From positions 1 through 21,200 of the IMG/VR virus record IMGVR_UViG_3300045988_174903: a stretch of DNA of 21,200 nucleotides. The stretch is one strand, 5' to 3'. Source of the DNA: a virus. This document shows positions 2,654 through 16,031 of the stretch, one piece after another. The position numbers were made by a program, and so were the translations under genes. The stretch's first letter is position 1. Each line of letters opens with the position of its first letter. The notes beneath the pieces are model-generated. The model was not told the origin of the DNA. It was given only the letters and a program-made list of their open reading frames with translations, and did no database searches.

Positions 2654-3139
2654 CTATCTCAGCAAGTCGGGATTCTTTTTGAGATACTCCCAGGCAACAT
2701 CTGTGATGTTGACGTCAAACCCGGACACAATGCTTCCGTACAAGGAATGTCGAATAAGAACGCCGGCTTCTATCAGACCATTTACGACGCCGTCCCTATC
2801 ATCAAATCTCTGTGTTCGAGTATCGAAGAAGATATATCCAAGCAGAATGTCTTTCTCTTTTTGAGTGAGAGCATGGAGACGCTTGATCACCTTTTTACGG
2901 GATTTTGCCTTGGAGCGAGAGGTTTTGATAGTGTTCCAAACCTTTTCCAGCAGGGCGCAGCCGGAAATAAGGAACACGAACCCCGCAATATCGCGGTAAT
3001 CATGGGTCGAATAGCTGATATGCAGGGCCTCAAGGAGGCTTTGAGGAGCGAAAAGATAAACTCCTGCTGCGGAAAAGATTATGCCTGCATAATTGCAAGC
3101 GAATTTAAGCAATTCTGCCAAGTATTGGGGAAAAATCAT
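2654..3139 (-). CDS. sieB: SieB-family superinfection exclusion protein
   Basis: 161 aa. Two N-terminal hydrophobic helices, a basic linker, then LTQKEKDILLGYIF...DGVVNGLIEAGVLIRHS...VAWEYLKKNPDLL. This matches my recollection of the SieB (PF14163) signature. Confidence 0.7.
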   Translation of the reverse strand: MIFPQYLAELLKFACNYAGIIFSAAGVYLFAPQSLLEALHISYSTHDYRDIAGFVFLISGCALLEKVWNTIKTSRSKAKSRKKVIKRLHALTQKEKDILLGYIFFDTRTQRFDDRDGVVNGLIEAGVLIRHSLYGSIVSGFDVNITDVAWEYLKKNPDLLR

Positions 3140-3427: not shown

Positions 3428-3612
3428 GCATCGAATACGACGAAGAAGACCGCTGCATCCGTGTGGATGATGTAGCTGTGAGTCACGCAGATGCCGAACG
3501 GCTGATGAACGAACACGAAACCGCAGCCGCGGCCCTCGAAAACGCCCTGGTGCGGTACGAACGGGACCATGCCACGACGGACAACCCTGACGGACACAAC
3601 GACGACTTTTGA
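3424..3612 (+). CDS. Hypothetical acidic protein
   Basis: 62 aa. ATGA start/stop overlap with the upstream gene, and a GGAGGG Shine-Dalgarno (SD) sequence upstream. Confidence 0.5.
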   Translation: MSIEYDEEDRCIRVDDVAVSHADAERLMNEHETAAAALENALVRYERDHATTDNPDGHNDDF

Positions 3613-4363: not shown

Positions 4364-4972
4364 ATGCAAAGAAACGAATGCAAGCCCGGAACCGAAGTCA
4401 TTATCCGGGGAAAGATCAAAGAAGATGACGGAACTGATTTACACCCTATCATTGTTGATATCCACGGTAGCAAAAGAGAGGAAATTAGGTGCCTTGATCC
4501 TTCCCAACTTGAGCCTGCCCGGACGAAATACGACCCGGCGCGGAAATACCGCAAGGGGGATTTGGTGCGAATCACCGGATTTCACGGGAGACTTTTCGGG
4601 TGTGGAGGTAATCGGGAGTTGTCCAAAGGTAGCAAAATTGGAACCCAAATTGTACTTCATGAAGACGAGATTCCGGGAGGGGATGTTAGCCTCCCTGATG
4701 GCTTGTTACTAAACAAGAACAATTACCTTTCCGTTGCTTGCATTGAGCTTGTCAAGCCCATTGAAGAAATTGAAGCGGAACAGCCTTATTACGTTGAGGA
4801 AGAGGACGATTCATTTGGTGTTTGGTTTAAAAAAGACTCTGAAATTGTCTTGAGAATGCACTGCGTGTCTTTCGGAGACGGGCGCGAAGTGACACGAGAA
4901 GAGGCCCTAGAGAAAGCCTTGGAGCTTTGCGACGAACTGAACCGCAAGCATCAGGAATCCCTGAATGCCTAA
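4364..4972 (+). CDS. Hypothetical protein
   Basis: 202-aa ORF in operon context. No motif recognised. Confidence 0.5.
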   Translation: MQRNECKPGTEVIIRGKIKEDDGTDLHPIIVDIHGSKREEIRCLDPSQLEPARTKYDPARKYRKGDLVRITGFHGRLFGCGGNRELSKGSKIGTQIVLHEDEIPGGDVSLPDGLLLNKNNYLSVACIELVKPIEEIEAEQPYYVEEEDDSFGVWFKKDSEIVLRMHCVSFGDGREVTREEALEKALELCDELNRKHQESLNA

Positions 4973-5975: not shown

Positions 5976-6656
5976 ATGTTAGACCTTGAAAATATAGTTA
6001 TTTACGAGGATGTCCCACAACGGAGCGACCTATGGTTTAAATTGCGTTCCGGTCATCTGACCGCCAGCAACTTTGACCGACTGATCACTCCCAAAACCGG
6101 GAAGCCGTCAGCCCAGCAGGATGATTTAATCATCGAACTGTGCTGCTCCTGTCTGCGTCCGGATGAAATAACCTTTGAAGGCAATTTTCACACGGATCGC
6201 GGGGAAGCCCTGGAACCGGAAGCCCGTGAGCTTTTCGCGACCTTGACCGGCAAAGCGGTAAAAGAAGTTGGATTTATCCGCCGCAAAACGGCCCCTATCG
6301 GGTGCAGCCCTGACGGACTTGTTTTTGAAAATCTGGAAGACGGGCTTGATCTTGTGATAGCTGGACTTGAGATCAAGTGCCCTCTCTCCAAGCATCATGC
6401 CCGGTATCTGCTGGACGGCGTGCTGCCGGACAAATACAAGCCGCAGGTGCACGGCTCCATGGCTGTGACTGGCTTGCGGGCGTGGTATTTCCTTTCCTAC
6501 TGCCCCGGACTGCGCCCGTTTTTGGTCAAAGTGAAATGGGACGAGTACACCGACCGCATTAAGGCGGCTCTGGACGAATTCGGCCCAAAATACCTTGACG
6601 CTTACACTCGGATCATGCCGGCAATCCGCCCGGCCGTAGAAGGGAGGGCGGCATGA
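5976..6656 (+). CDS. YqaJ/lambda-exonuclease-family recombination exonuclease
   Basis: WFKLRSGHLTASNFDRL...GCSPDGLV...LEIKCP motifs. Partner of RecT. ATG 5976 follows the RecT stop. Confidence 0.8.
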   Translation: MLDLENIVIYEDVPQRSDLWFKLRSGHLTASNFDRLITPKTGKPSAQQDDLIIELCCSCLRPDEITFEGNFHTDRGEALEPEARELFATLTGKAVKEVGFIRRKTAPIGCSPDGLVFENLEDGLDLVIAGLEIKCPLSKHHARYLLDGVLPDKYKPQVHGSMAVTGLRAWYFLSYCPGLRPFLVKVKWDEYTDRIKAALDEFGPKYLDAYTRIMPAIRPAVEGRAA

Positions 6657-7528: not shown

Positions 7529-7940
7529 CATCCTCGCATCCGTCAGGCGGCCTTTCTCCGGGCAAATTTTGTCCGGGGAAAAAACGTGGGAACTGCGGAA
7601 ATCTTTTCCGTATAAATATTATTACGAAAAACTAATTGTTTGGCTTTATGAGTCAAGGAAAGGAGGGGAGAGAGCAATAATCGGCAAATGCGTGCTCCGC
7701 ACTATCTGGGACATACGGGAAGACATAAGCTATTGCTTTACCCGTGAAATACTCGAAAAAGCGTGTGTCACATATGATTTATTAAAATCTTACGCTCCTA
7801 ATTATGTATGGGAATTTTCCAGTCCTGTTTCTTTGCCTTCTCCTGTGCCGCTCTCGGCCATCGGCATGACCCGTCCGCCGCAAAGCTGGCAGTACCTCAC
7901 TGACGAGCAAGCGGCGATACTGGAAAGGAGGCTCGCATGA
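7521..7940 (+). CDS. ASCH-domain-like protein
   Basis: N-terminus MINILASVRRPFSGQILSGEKTWELRK resembles the ASCH beta-barrel start. ATG 7521 overlaps the previous stop. Confidence 0.5.
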   Translation: MINILASVRRPFSGQILSGEKTWELRKSFPYKYYYEKLIVWLYESRKGGERAIIGKCVLRTIWDIREDISYCFTREILEKACVTYDLLKSYAPNYVWEFSSPVSLPSPVPLSAIGMTRPPQSWQYLTDEQAAILERRLA

Positions 7941-11300: not shown

Positions 11301-12605
11301 TCAAGATTGTTTCTTTGTAGACCGCCCCCTTGTATCAAACGCCGGGATATTTAATTTTCTCCTTGCTTTTCCGATAACTTGTATTGATTTGCCTGTTTTA
11401 TTAGCGACTTCTTTATCAGTCATTGTGCCCAGCAGGGATTTAATGTATTCGTCCCCTTCTATTGTTTCTTGCAAGCTTTTTTCCTCACGTAATGCCGGAA
11501 CATTCAATTTCTGTCTAATTCTTCTTACTGCCTCGTCATCAATATTAAATTTTTCGGCTATTACTCTATCATAAACTTTCCCAAGCATAGATAAGAGTTT
11601 TTTACGTTGGTCCGGTGAAAATCTTTCTAAAATGCTTTTACTGAAAGGCTTAATTTTGTTCTGTTCTCTAAATTTTTTAATTACATATACGCTGTACCCT
11701 GTTTTTTTTGCAATTTTTAAATCTGATACTCTTCCCAATAAATTAAGAATTATATCCTTGTCCGCATCCTTAATGGGAGAGTATGGAGCTGGAGCAATTT
11801 TTAATTTTCTACGGTTCCGCGCTACAACATTAAGCGATATTCCAAGCCTTTCAGCAATTTCGCTATCAGGAACTTTCCCAAGCATGGATAGCATTTCTTC
11901 GCGTTTCTCTTCGGGGAATTTAGTATCAGATAATGATGGAATGCCCATCTTTTTTCTAATAAGCGCAATTCCTGCCTTGGAATAACCGAATTTTTTAGCA
12001 ATTTCATCATCCGGGGTCTTTCCAAGCATGTTAATTAACTCTTCGGGATACTCTTTTTTCTTGTGTGGTTTATTTGGGTCTCGTGGCTGACGGGGTTTAC
12101 GCGGCCCCCTATATGACTTAATCCCTAATTTCTTTCTAAGGTAGGCTACTCTGGAATTTGAGTATCCAAACTTCTTGGCACACTCCGAGTCAGGAATTTT
12201 TCCGAGCACTGCAATAAGCTCTTCATCGTGTTGGATGCGGATTGCTTCAGGGCTGCAATACTTTTTGATACCTAATTTATAGCGTTCAGTCTGGACCGTG
12301 ACGCGCGCTATTCCGAGTAGCTCGGCGATTTCCAGATCAGGTTTTTTGCCCAACATGGACCGCATTTCTTCACGCTGTTCGTGAGAAAGAATGCGGTGAA
12401 ACCTCTTTTCTCGGTATTTTTCATGCAATAACTCCATGAGCAATTGCATGTATTCAGGCGTGGGATGTGGTTTTTTAGTATTTAGCCACTTCCAAACAGC
12501 ATCTTCCGTCACCCGCATCATCTGCGCGGCCCTTTTTACAGCTTGGGTAGGATTTGGAAGATTGTTGGCAGTTTGAAGCCAGTCGATAAATTCTTGTGCG
12601 GTCAT
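11301..12605 (-). CDS. Multi-HTH repeat protein: N-terminal Cro/YdaS-like HTH plus seven tandem sigma-r4/Mor/GcrA-like HTH modules
   Basis: 434 aa. The consensus (E)E(L/M)xxMLGKxPDxEIAKKFGYSxxxVxxxRKKLGI recurs with the LG(K/R/T) dipeptide at residues 85, 134, 194, 242, 290, 341 and 392. The repeats are also visible in the DNA (e.g. TTTCCCAAGCAT variants). Confidence 0.8.
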   Translation of the reverse strand: MTAQEFIDWLQTANNLPNPTQAVKRAAQMMRVTEDAVWKWLNTKKPHPTPEYMQLLMELLHEKYREKRFHRILSHEQREEMRSMLGKKPDLEIAELLGIARVTVQTERYKLGIKKYCSPEAIRIQHDEELIAVLGKIPDSECAKKFGYSNSRVAYLRKKLGIKSYRGPRKPRQPRDPNKPHKKKEYPEELINMLGKTPDDEIAKKFGYSKAGIALIRKKMGIPSLSDTKFPEEKREEMLSMLGKVPDSEIAERLGISLNVVARNRRKLKIAPAPYSPIKDADKDIILNLLGRVSDLKIAKKTGYSVYVIKKFREQNKIKPFSKSILERFSPDQRKKLLSMLGKVYDRVIAEKFNIDDEAVRRIRQKLNVPALREEKSLQETIEGDEYIKSLLGTMTDKEVANKTGKSIQVIGKARRKLNIPAFDTRGRSTKKQS

Positions 12606-12646: not shown

Positions 12647-12970
12647 TTAGTGAGCTTCAACGCGGGAAGCGTCCTGCGTCCAGTTGAGGTTTTCTCCTTC
12701 AATTTCTTCGCCCGTCATTTGTTCAAAGACCATGAAGATTTCAACCTTGTTCCCTTCTGCATCATAGCCGGGAGCAGACCATTCTTCCATATAGCTGCCG
12801 TCTTCGTATTTGTCCGCATAGGAGCCAGGGAAAACCCTGTTGGTGTATTCCATCTGGCGCGCTGCATAGTAGGTCTTGCCTTCAAACTTGTAGCTGCCAA
12901 ATTCACGTTCAAGAGCGGTCAGGTTGATTTCTTCTCCGTCTTCCGTGGTGATGATTTTGTTATCGTTCAT
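12647..12970 (-). CDS. Highly acidic 107-aa protein (function unknown)
   Basis: By my count, 24 D/E against 9 K/R. It is the first gene of the minus-strand operon. No recognised motif. Confidence 0.6.
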   Translation of the reverse strand: MNDNKIITTEDGEEINLTALEREFGSYKFEGKTYYAARQMEYTNRVFPGSYADKYEDGSYMEEWSAPGYDAEGNKVEIFMVFEQMTGEEIEGENLNWTQDASRVEAH

Positions 12971-13042
12971 TGTCTTGTTCTTTCTAGTTTTGTTATTTGG
13001 ATTATGTCTTCGTTCGGTCCCTTACCTCCCGTCAACAAAATT

Positions 13043-13071
13043 AAGTTACTATAAAATTTATAGTAACGCAA
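13043..13071 (-). promoter_or_regulatory. Candidate promoter with embedded perfect palindrome (operator) for the minus-strand operon
   Basis: On the minus strand: TTGCGT (13071-13066), 17 nt, TAACTT (13048-13043). The spacer and flanks form GTTACTATAAA-A-TTTATAGTAAC (13045-13067), with 11-bp perfect arms. Confidence 0.4.
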
Positions 13072-13147
13072 GAGAAAAAATGAAAAAAGGTGAAAAAAGT
13101 TGTCATTCCGTTTTTGCTTGCGGCCTGGCGCAGAATATGAGAGAAGT

Positions 13148-13271
13148 AATTTGTTCTTTCTAGGAACACGTCAGCCCTCCGGGGCTGTGGATTAAAACGA
13201 TCACAAGATCAGCACGAGCGGAAACGCTCATTCCCTTAAAAAGGGCGGTTCTTCGGGGCTGCCCTTTTTTA
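13148..13271 (+). ncRNA. Candidate plus-strand structured small RNA ending in an intrinsic terminator
   Basis: Three hairpins have canonical stable tetraloops only when read on the plus strand. First: CAGCCC-UCCG-GGGCUG (13172-13187). Second: GAGCG-GAAA-CGCUC (13216-13229). Third: a 10-bp stem with a UUCG loop (13242-13265) plus U6. The 5' end is a guess, based on a weak TTGCTT-16-TATGAG at 13114-13141. Confidence 0.35.
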
Positions 13272-13787
13272 TTCCTTCGGGACGGCAGGGGCGGCAAGTA
13301 CCCGCCATCCGGCGCCGCTGCCATGTCCGCATTTGCGGAAGCGTTGTGCAGCACAAACCAGGAGCTTATAGACCTTTTTCCCCTTTTCTTCGCCGTACCG
13401 GTCTATCATGTAGAGTTTGAGATTCCGAGCCGTGACTTTCTCTCCATCCGGGGATTCCAGCAGCCATATCTTTGCATGGCAATTTGTCTCAAATTTCCCT
13501 GTTCTGGGGTGCTTCCTGGGGCCGGGAACTCCCCGATGCTTGCAAGCCTCCTGAAAGGCTTCTGACGTGATTTTCCGCCCCTTCTGGGCTGCATTCGCGC
13601 AAGGATAAGAGCAATGTTTCCGCCGAAAGAGTTTTTTAGCGCGGAATTCCTTTCCGCACACGGGGCAGGTGATAGTTTCCCAGGCGGCGTCATAGTGTGC
13701 CTTGAGGCAAGCGCGGGAGCAGTATACGCTTTCCCGCGCTCCGTAGCGCGGCGGAACATCCTTGCCGCATATAGGACACTTTTTCAC
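13269..13787 (-). CDS. Double zinc-ribbon protein with homing-endonuclease-like C-terminal DNA-binding segment
   Basis: Two CPxCGK...(Y/H)CSxxC units: CPICGKDV...YCSRAC and CPVCGKEF...HCSYPC. The C-terminal WLLESPDGEKVTARNLKLYMIDRYGEE...GAGWRV resembles the tail of phage GIY-YIG/HNH-associated proteins. No catalytic motif is seen. Confidence 0.6.
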   Translation of the reverse strand: MKKCPICGKDVPPRYGARESVYCSRACLKAHYDAAWETITCPVCGKEFRAKKLFRRKHCSYPCANAAQKGRKITSEAFQEACKHRGVPGPRKHPRTGKFETNCHAKIWLLESPDGEKVTARNLKLYMIDRYGEEKGKKVYKLLVCAAQRFRKCGHGSGAGWRVLAAPAVPKE

Positions 13788-15834: not shown

Positions 15835-16031
15835 TCGCAGGGTAGTGAAACGGTATCATATGAGGTTCCTGTCCTCATGTCGGAGGTCCAACTCCTCCCC
15901 CTGCAACCAACCTTTTCTTTTCCTCCCGCCGCAGGTTTAACGCCGTCCGAAATATCCTCAACGCCCCGAAGCTGGTCGCCCAACAGGAGACCAGAATCAA
16001 GGAGCTGGAAACAGACCTCGCCCGGCAAGCC

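Follow-up and report, generated by a model that had tools for sequence, protein, structure and literature searches.

We propose that a plus-strand RNA of about 120 nt, located at about 13150-13270 of the DNA stretch analysed here, is a small RNA of an Akkermansia prophage whose core mimics a type I-C CRISPR repeat; on balance, the evidence tips towards its serving as a decoy in the manner of the RNA anti-CRISPRs (Racrs). The stretch, hereafter the window, comprises 21,200 nt (positions 1 to 21,200 of the IMG/VR virus record IMGVR_UViG_3300045988_174903). A first-pass annotation had described the region as a novel structured RNA with three hairpins that favour the plus strand, and the three hairpins were indeed found where it had placed them. 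The RNA could not be regarded as novel in kind, however: hairpin 1 and the 11 bases that follow it form a look-alike of the type I-C CRISPR repeat, and solitary repeat units (SRUs) of this sort, a class of RNA anti-CRISPRs, have already been described (PMC10651486). Its interest lies in the host, the prevalence and the divergent, self-contained architecture.

The unit at 13170-13198 reads GTCAGCCC-TCCG-GGGCTGTGGATTAAAAC and shows the anatomy of a repeat on the plus strand only: GTC, a GC stem (13172-13177 paired with 13182-13187) with a tetraloop, and the GTGGATTRAAAC handle (UGGAUUAAAAC at 13188-13198). A covariance model, R1, was derived from a set of 12 type I-C repeats (eight from arrays, one from a paper and three further known ones), with the window excluded. 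When the window was searched with filters off, R1 matched the unit on the plus strand over model positions 1-32 with 18.4 bits and, by a rough calibration, E = 0.0016, the next best match having E = 0.7. A full-length match at this E-value to a model built without the window argues for the RNA anti-CRISPR reading. The exact 12-mer GTGGATTRAAAC occurs once in the window, right after the stem-loop, where about 0.005 occurrences would be expected in 21.2 kb on both strands. The unit is solitary: two further handle matches in the window, each with 2 mismatches, were both at chance level. It is intergenic as well: on one side a 107-aa gene starts (12970), and on the other an HNH-endonuclease-like gene ends with its stop codon (13269). 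With type I-C CRISPR repeats such as GTCGCATCCCTCGCGGATGCGTGGATTAAAAC the unit shares the 5' GTC, the GC-rich stem and the 4-nt loop, and its 3' GTGGATTAAAAC handle is identical to that of type I-C arrays in gut metagenomes. It differs from them in lying outside any array, in being three bases shorter and in having an A-U pair at the base of the stem, where G-C or C-G is usual. The coordinates of the unit and its surroundings are collected in the table.

Table. Features of the small-RNA region and its flanking genes (window coordinates).
Feature	Position	Strand	Remark
Promoter-like site TTGCGG (13118-13123)-17-GAGAAG (13141-13146), TG before it	13118..13146	+	picked by eye
Leader hairpin P0 UGUUCUU-UCU-AGGAACA	13152..13168	+	core GTTC...GAAC conserved; predicted in every variant
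Solitary type I-C repeat-like unit (psiR) GTC-A-GCCC-TCCG-GGGC-T-GTGGATTAAAAC	13170..13198	+	covariance model R1
Mini hairpin P2 GAUC-ACAA-GAUC	13199..13210	+	directly 3' of the handle, where a spacer would start
Hairpin P3 (hairpin 2) GAGCG-GAAA-CGCUC	13216..13229	+	loop GNRA on the plus strand
Intrinsic terminator between A-run and T-run	13238..13270	unstranded	call of the plus-strand terminator scan
Zinc-ribbon / HNH-endonuclease-like gene, 172 aa	13269..13787	-	convergent with the RNA; phrog_1271 and PDB 9kja matches
Acidic protein gene, 107 aa	12647..12970	-	divergent; first gene of the minus-strand operon; context only

The host also fits. Judging from its sequence, the window is an Akkermansia prophage: it encodes a DnaC-like ATPase, TerS, TerL, a Mu-type portal and RecT but no cas genes, and Akkermansia is named in public records as the source of proteins matching those of the prophage. 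The phage GenBank collection contained no DNA match to the window, and few phages of Akkermansia are known (PMC8278651). Type I-C CRISPR-Cas has been reported from this genus in two studies, one of which found it in all Akkermansia candidate species, with the protospacer adjacent motif (PAM) TTC and an unusual divergent gene order (PMC8278651; PMC9241678). The cognate subtype is thus present in the host at the level of the genus, which argues for the anti-CRISPR reading.

The class to which we compare the RNA is also experimentally established, and this too favours our reading: RNA anti-CRISPR activity has been described for phage SRUs, among them RacrIC1, which inhibits a type I-C system; 83% of SRUs match the CRISPR subtype of their host, and they often lie just downstream of a promoter (Camara-Wilpert et al., Nature 2023, PMC10651486). 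In the type I-C pairs of SRU and host, the stem may differ while the handle is kept, e.g., GTCACTCTTCGAATGAAGAGTGTGGATTGAAAT versus GTCGCTCTCCTTA-GGGGAGCGTGGATTGAAAT (PMC10651486). The window unit is likewise a single repeat look-alike in an intergenic region of a (pro)phage without cas genes nearby, its subtype matches the system of the host genus, and a promoter-like site lies just upstream. It departs from the known examples in the phylum of its host, Verrucomicrobiota, and in its shorter form (29 nt, a 6-bp stem and a UNCG loop). Whereas RacrIC1 is co-transcribed 11 nt after acrIC5 (PMC10651486), the RNA of the window is predicted to be a self-contained unit with a leader hairpin and a structured tail, and no recognisable acr gene stands beside it. 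SRUs were reportedly first listed by Faure et al. in 2019.

By analogy with RacrIC1 and RacrIF1, the RNA could act as follows. It would be transcribed from the promoter-like site at 13118-13146; host Cas5c would bind the stem-loop and may cut after G13187; and the mimic would tie up Cas5c, Cas7 and Cas8c in non-functional complexes. Such sequestration would lower type I-C interference against the phage, and the structured tail (P2, P3 and the terminator) would stabilise the RNA.

The evolution of the region in close relatives points to a conserved RNA. IMG/VR and public assemblies yielded 10 distinct versions of it, from about three lineages and 77-100% identical, and five hairpins (leader, hairpin 1, GAUC-NNAA-GAUC, hairpin 2 and terminator) were predicted in all 10. 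Two of these, the leader hairpin at 13152-13168 and P2 at 13199-13210, are conserved but had been missed in the first pass. The second pair of P3 is A-U in four variants and G-C in six, a compensatory change, and one variant has a G.U at its first pair; the leader's outer pair, U-A in the window, is replaced by C-G in the L007 group. The stem of P2 is invariant. The loops, read on the plus strand, are TCCG, TTCG or CTCG in the UNCG(-like) class and GAAA or GCAA, always GNRA, in P3, and the P2 loop is ACAA, GCAA or GUAA; the loop classes are kept on this strand only, as had been anticipated. Taken together, the loop classes, the compensatory change and the five hairpins in every variant support the earlier proposal of a plus-strand structured small RNA with its own terminator. 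The variants also differ by indels of 1-3 nt, those between hairpins measuring 2 and 3 nt and that of the terminator 1 nt, which argues against coding.

When the window is compared with the L007 group, identity amounts to 82-85% in the RNA, as against 60-80% in the flanking genes and only 58-65% in the stretch just upstream (13080-13160). Positions 13170-13198 are the most conserved part of the intergenic region and, together with P2, almost invariant in this comparison. That the RNA is more conserved than the flanking genes, and that the handle is unpaired in single-sequence folds, both speak for a repeat mimic. RNAalifold proposed a pairing between leader and handle; the single-sequence folds favour a local leader hairpin, and we retain the alternative pairing as a possibility only. 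Among the variants, that of L005 (handle GTGGATTGAAAC) scored 20.3 bits with R1.

The fold of 13136-13272 is strong and asymmetric. The plus strand folded at -53.7 kcal/mol, as compared with -34.1 ± 3.6 for shuffled sequences (z = -5.49, none of 200 shuffles as good), and the minus strand at -41.6 kcal/mol (z = -2.37). Hairpin 1 is CAGCCC-TCCG-GGGCTG at 13172-13187 on the plus strand. Hairpin 3, AGGGCGGTTC-TTCG-GGGCTGCCCT at 13242-13265, is followed by T6 (13265-13270). Its position and its three G:U pairs had been described correctly, but the 3' arm had been written with 11 bases (GGGGCUGCCCU), one G more than its real length of 10. The terminator scan called 13238-13269 on the plus strand only (14 pairs, a 4-nt loop and a T-run), and in the window the minus-strand terminator stem is weaker than that of the plus strand. 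Across the variants, the plus strand was favoured by 6.5-10.5 kcal/mol in nine of the 10; in L028, where the top of the terminator is inverted, the minus strand was better by 4.7 kcal/mol. The strand asymmetry thus arises mostly from the terminator. In L028 (about 2995-3020, corresponding to 13242-13265 of the window), the upper stem and loop run the opposite way round from those of every other variant (GGGGCGGCTTCGAAAAAACCGCCCC vs GGGGCGGTTTTTTCGAAGCCGCCCC), a small hairpin inversion. Because of this flip, the G:U pairs, which had been taken as a sign of selection for the plus strand, do not by themselves fix the strand, although the pairs are real. The last hairpin also abuts the stop codon of the minus-strand HNH gene (13269-13271) and has an A-run on its other side, as the first-pass annotation had cautioned. 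Judging from this arrangement, it very likely terminates the HNH gene as well, and the terminator is best seen as bidirectional. The further suggestion that hairpins 1 and 2 lie in the 3' untranslated region of the HNH gene is not the best explanation of these elements, as the unit has the form of a repeat only when read on the plus strand.

The promoter is a matter of sequence resemblance. The previously proposed TTGCTT (13114-13119)-16-TATGAG (13136-13141) is present in the sequence but is not called as a promoter by the scanner. In alignment A4, the site at 13118-13146 lines up with TTGTCG/TTGCCG-18-TAGGAG/TAGGAA in the L007-related group and with TTGACT-18-TAGAAA/TAAAAA upstream of the repeat-like units of L018 and L109; direct reading of these two loci also places the latter motif before each unit. 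We infer that 13118-13146 may act as the promoter of the small RNA.

Repeat-like units recur in other phage lineages. Homologues of the HNH gene with 51-58% identity (L018, L112, L113 and L109) have type I-C-like units alongside, situated on the HNH gene's own strand. The unit of L109 is GTCGCCC-TTTC-GGGCGTGGATTAAAAC (R1 28.3 bits), and that of L018, L112 and L113 is GTCGCC-TTCC-GGCGTGGATTAAAAC (25 bits). Another, more degenerate unit is located after the HNH homologue and scored 18.6 bits in L018 and L112 and 9.6 bits in L113. In L018 a short hairpin just upstream of the units aligns with the leader of the window (GTTC..GAAC before the unit after the HNH gene, GTTCC..GGGAC before the other). 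The stem is A-GCCC/GGGC-T in the window, GCCC/GGGC in L109 and GCC/GGC in L018, L112 and L113, the handle is kept, and the tails after the units are unrelated between lineages. A functional core consisting of the repeat-like unit would be expected to leave this pattern. A constant handle with a variable stem is also the pattern of true repeats, which further argues for an RNA anti-CRISPR.

A second Akkermansia-type phage family (L101, L104, L105, L107 and L108), which has the acidic-protein gene in common, supports this reading as well, since a near-canonical type I-C unit, TTCGCACTCTCATGAGTGCGTGGATTGAAAC, occurs singly in three of its members (L101, L107 and L108) and was matched with 34 bits (E about 1e-8). 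In L101 the unit (4447-4477) follows an 11-bp AT-rich palindrome, and the next gene is 14 nt away. On the unrelated viral contig L106, two repeats of the TTCGCACTCTCATGAGTGCGTGGATTGAAAC type enclose a 34-nt spacer in a mini-array that also has a terminator (7710-7807, minus strand), and the spacers of this array had no match in any of the loci compared. Virus-borne mini-CRISPR arrays, of which L106 is a real example with a related repeat, resemble the window in carrying repeat-like sequence on a virus without cas genes. The window, by contrast, has a single repeat and no spacer between two repeats.

Rfam returned no family at gathering score and only chance-level matches in 12900-13400. It also missed the near-canonical type I-C repeats of L101 and L106, so that its negative result is uninformative with regard to CRISPR repeats.

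Several observations weigh against the anti-CRISPR reading. The R1 score of the window unit is modest, and the commonest diverged variant, the L007-group form (GTTCAG... for GTCAG...), scored 11.6 bits (E = 0.35). The unit is short (29 nt with a 6-bp stem vs 32-33 nt with 6-7 bp). The consensus promoter scanner made no call in this region or at the aligned sites of relatives. Family, sequence and fold searches recognised no anti-CRISPR protein among the neighbouring genes; SRUs often adjoin acr genes, but this is a tendency and no requirement (PMC10651486). The native Akkermansia type I-C repeat was not recovered by genome, metagenome, Cas5c or supplement searches. The single published 'Akkermansia' repeat, GTCGCTCTCCGCAAGGAGAGCGTGGATAGAAATG, with the handle GTGGATAGAAAT, has 8 of 11 handle bases in common with the window, and a search for GTCGCTCTCCGCAAGGAGAGCGTGGATAGAAATG in the species-representative genomes matched no Akkermansia record, nearly all named matches being Firmicutes. 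Finally, the window unit is not among the listed entries of the SRUFinder table.

From the distribution of its matches, the published repeat GTCGCTCTCCGCAAGGAGAGCGTGGATAGAAATG looks like a transfer from Clostridia. The exact window unit was absent from the species-representative genomes. The metagenome scan uncovered real type I-C arrays with repeats ending in GTGGATTAAAAC, in low-GC bacteria. The most widespread Cas5c match comprised three loci with 56-59% GC and the GTGGATAGAAAT handle, one of the three with a Tn916-type integrase, and these loci showed no tie to Akkermansia. The supplements of two papers contained no repeats, and the viral contigs scanned for arrays ending in GTGGATTAAAAC gave tandem artefacts only. 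As for SRUFinder, its blastn comparison with catalogued repeats demands 41.1 bits or more. The longest exact match of the window unit to the repeats compared here is the 12-nt handle, which falls below 41.1 bits, and by this comparison the unit would probably fail the threshold. It is probably too divergent and too short to be picked up by the published BLAST-based SRU screen, which suggests that structure-aware searches will find more.

Isolated repeat-like units of another kind occur on low-GC gut-metagenome contigs (L073 5104, L078 576 and L068 2196-2250). They end in ...GGCTGTGGATTAAAAC and lack the stem of the array; some are paired, 54-56 nt apart, and the L073 and L078 stretches also carry type I-C arrays with the repeat GTCGCATCCCTCGCGGATGCGTGGATTAAAAY. 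By analogy with CreA/CreR, these isolated units may be crRNA-like (CRISPR RNA-like) regulatory elements of the host.

The main rival to a decoy, although we hold it to be unlikely, is a crRNA-like regulatory RNA of the Cracr type, in which a short pseudo-spacer would guide host Cascade to bind, and not cut, a partly matching site with the TTC PAM. Cas5c would cut after the stem and leave the 5' handle, the next 14-17 nt (GAUCRYAAGAUC..., GATCRYAAGATC) would be the pseudo-spacer, and P3 would replace the hairpin of a 3' repeat; the silenced site could be a cas promoter or a CRISPR-guarding toxin gene. In a Cracr, a single repeat-like element is followed by a short spacer-like part that matches the promoter of a host cas or toxin gene, and then by a terminator (bioRxiv 10.1101/2024.10.29.618823). 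The order repeat, spacer-like stretch (from 13199) and terminator (13238-13270) is the same in the window RNA and corresponds to the layout of CracrVA1, and both type I-C Cracrs and short spacers occur in the class (Liu et al., bioRxiv 10.1101/2024.10.29.618823). Moreover, the stretch directly after the handle is conserved and not variable, and in other lineages AATTTGG follows the handle in both L018 units, with the close variant AGCTTGG in that of L109. The class is defined, however, by a match of at least nine PAM-proximal bases to the promoter of a host cas or toxin gene, and the window RNA resembles it in layout. Within the window, candidate targets of the pseudo-spacer were chance-level matches only and none had a TTC PAM, including the single near-match at 6348-6359. 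In addition, the 'spacer' is itself a hairpin, formed by the conserved 12 bases, which would compete with guide function; the distance from handle to P3 varies by 1-3 nt among the variants; and R1 gave no match at P3, which rules it out as a second degenerate repeat. The reported hosts of Cracrs belong to Pseudomonadota, Bacillota and Actinomycetota, whereas that of the window belongs to Verrucomicrobiota.

A related idea, which we regard as rather doubtful, is that the RNA would be a complete miniature crRNA mimic with which the prophage silences a host gene (cas or a guard toxin) or its own promoter through a shortened Cascade. The Cas5c cut would leave an 11-nt handle, and a shortened type I-C Cascade would form on the conserved 14-17-nt pseudo-spacer and the GNRA hairpin P3. 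Access to the handle could be controlled by the GTTC..GAAC leader hairpin, which can be recognised before most of the units found. If true, Verrucomicrobiota would gain their first system of this kind, carried by a prophage that is very common in the human gut.

The region might instead, with distinctly low probability, be an ordinary intergenic structure, i.e., a bidirectional terminator of the HNH gene with other hairpins in the spacer and a chance resemblance to a repeat. The terminator's position against the minus-strand stop codon with an A-run opposite, the flipped upper stem in L028, the covariance-model E-value of only about 2e-3 under rough calibration and the lack of a called promoter would all agree with this. 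Chance is nonetheless unlikely, because the unit recurs in other lineages: beside the 51-58% identical HNH homologues it has another stem, the same handle, better scores and a position on the opposite side of the gene. An ordinary structure would also leave unexplained that the UNCG and GNRA loop classes are kept on the plus strand only and that conservation is higher in the unit than in the coding sequence on either side.

A phage regulatory small RNA without any CRISPR link, pairing for example with the convergent HNH mRNA or a host mRNA, seems quite improbable to us. Its size, hairpins and terminator are typical of bacterial small RNAs and it overlaps the 3' end of the HNH transcript unit, but Rfam holds no match, and the full-length type I-C match and its recurrence with unrelated tails would remain without explanation. 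Least credible is a decayed remnant of a phage-borne mini-CRISPR array, now functionless or structural only, for even though a related repeat forms the L106 mini-array with its 34-nt spacer, no second repeat is detectable in the window, unit and tail are conserved in 10 of 10 variants with compensatory changes, and decay would not keep the handle across lineages with different stems.

Akkermansia is a gut bacterium that is linked to health and is under development as a probiotic. If the RNA is the anti-CRISPR that we favour, this genus would have its first candidate anti-CRISPR factor, the range of RNA anti-CRISPRs would extend to a new phylum, Verrucomicrobiota, and the RNA would have a bearing on gut phage-host dynamics and on CRISPR-based engineering of Akkermansia. 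Our literature search found no paper linking Akkermansia with RNA anti-CRISPRs.

Regarding the flanking genes, the 172-aa protein matched phrog_1271 (HNH endonuclease) with an E-value of 1.2e-8 and PDB 9kja (HNH endonuclease) with 1.4e-4. Its open reading frame (ORF), with a GTG start, is conserved but was left uncalled by the public gene calls in seven of eight homologous loci (L020-L026 of L020-L027; 8971-10000), so that a gap of about 1 kb is displayed as non-coding in L020-L026; relatives at 51-100% identity support its being a gene. In the L018 homologue, an in-frame TGA (3454-3456) replaces a Phe codon of the window and protein similarity resumes after it (GKAAGWKLLSLPVLPEE vs GSGAGWRVLAAPAVPKE); a recent nonsense mutation, a sequencing error or stop-codon read-through may account for this.

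The 107-aa acidic protein belongs to a family seen in Akkermansia or its phages only, and the public assembly collection has its gene in 1572 indexed blocks. Neither its sequence nor its fold (a confident model, pLDDT 90.7) gave a match in Pfam, PHROG, PDB or BFVD. It is co-transcribed with the gene of a 434-aa protein (11301-12605, minus strand) that contains about eight tandem helix-turn-helix modules of about 45 aa (...MLGKxPDxEIAxKxG...), and the best family match of the latter is a D5-like transcriptional regulator (phrog_323). Between this operon and the small RNA lies a perfect 23-bp palindrome, GTTACTATAAA-A-TTTATAGTAAC (13045-13067). Its counterpart in the L007/L102 group is TATACTAAACA-A-TGTTTAGTATA, with changes in both half-sites but the symmetry retained. 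From this pattern, a dimeric regulator probably uses the palindrome as its operator and controls one or both promoters. In L009 (2606-3000), a gene for a protein of about 130 aa with pentapeptide-type repeats, as judged by sequence inspection, is inserted between the conserved promoter/5' untranslated region and the acidic-protein gene, and in L010 an insertion at the same place shifts the RNA region by about 290 bp. Pentapeptide-repeat proteins can mimic DNA. By the comparison of these loci, the slot before the acidic-protein gene looks like a variable cargo position, perhaps for anti-defence genes.

At the left end of the window, a tRNA-Ser(GCT) gene (328-420) directly precedes a 395-aa ORF (557-1744), and a 395-aa integrase is called at the equivalent position in homologous loci. 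Judging from this arrangement, the tRNA-Ser(GCT) gene is likely the integration site. A tRNA-Arg(CCT) gene (15836-15909) lies inside the prophage, just after the ORF of the terminase large subunit.

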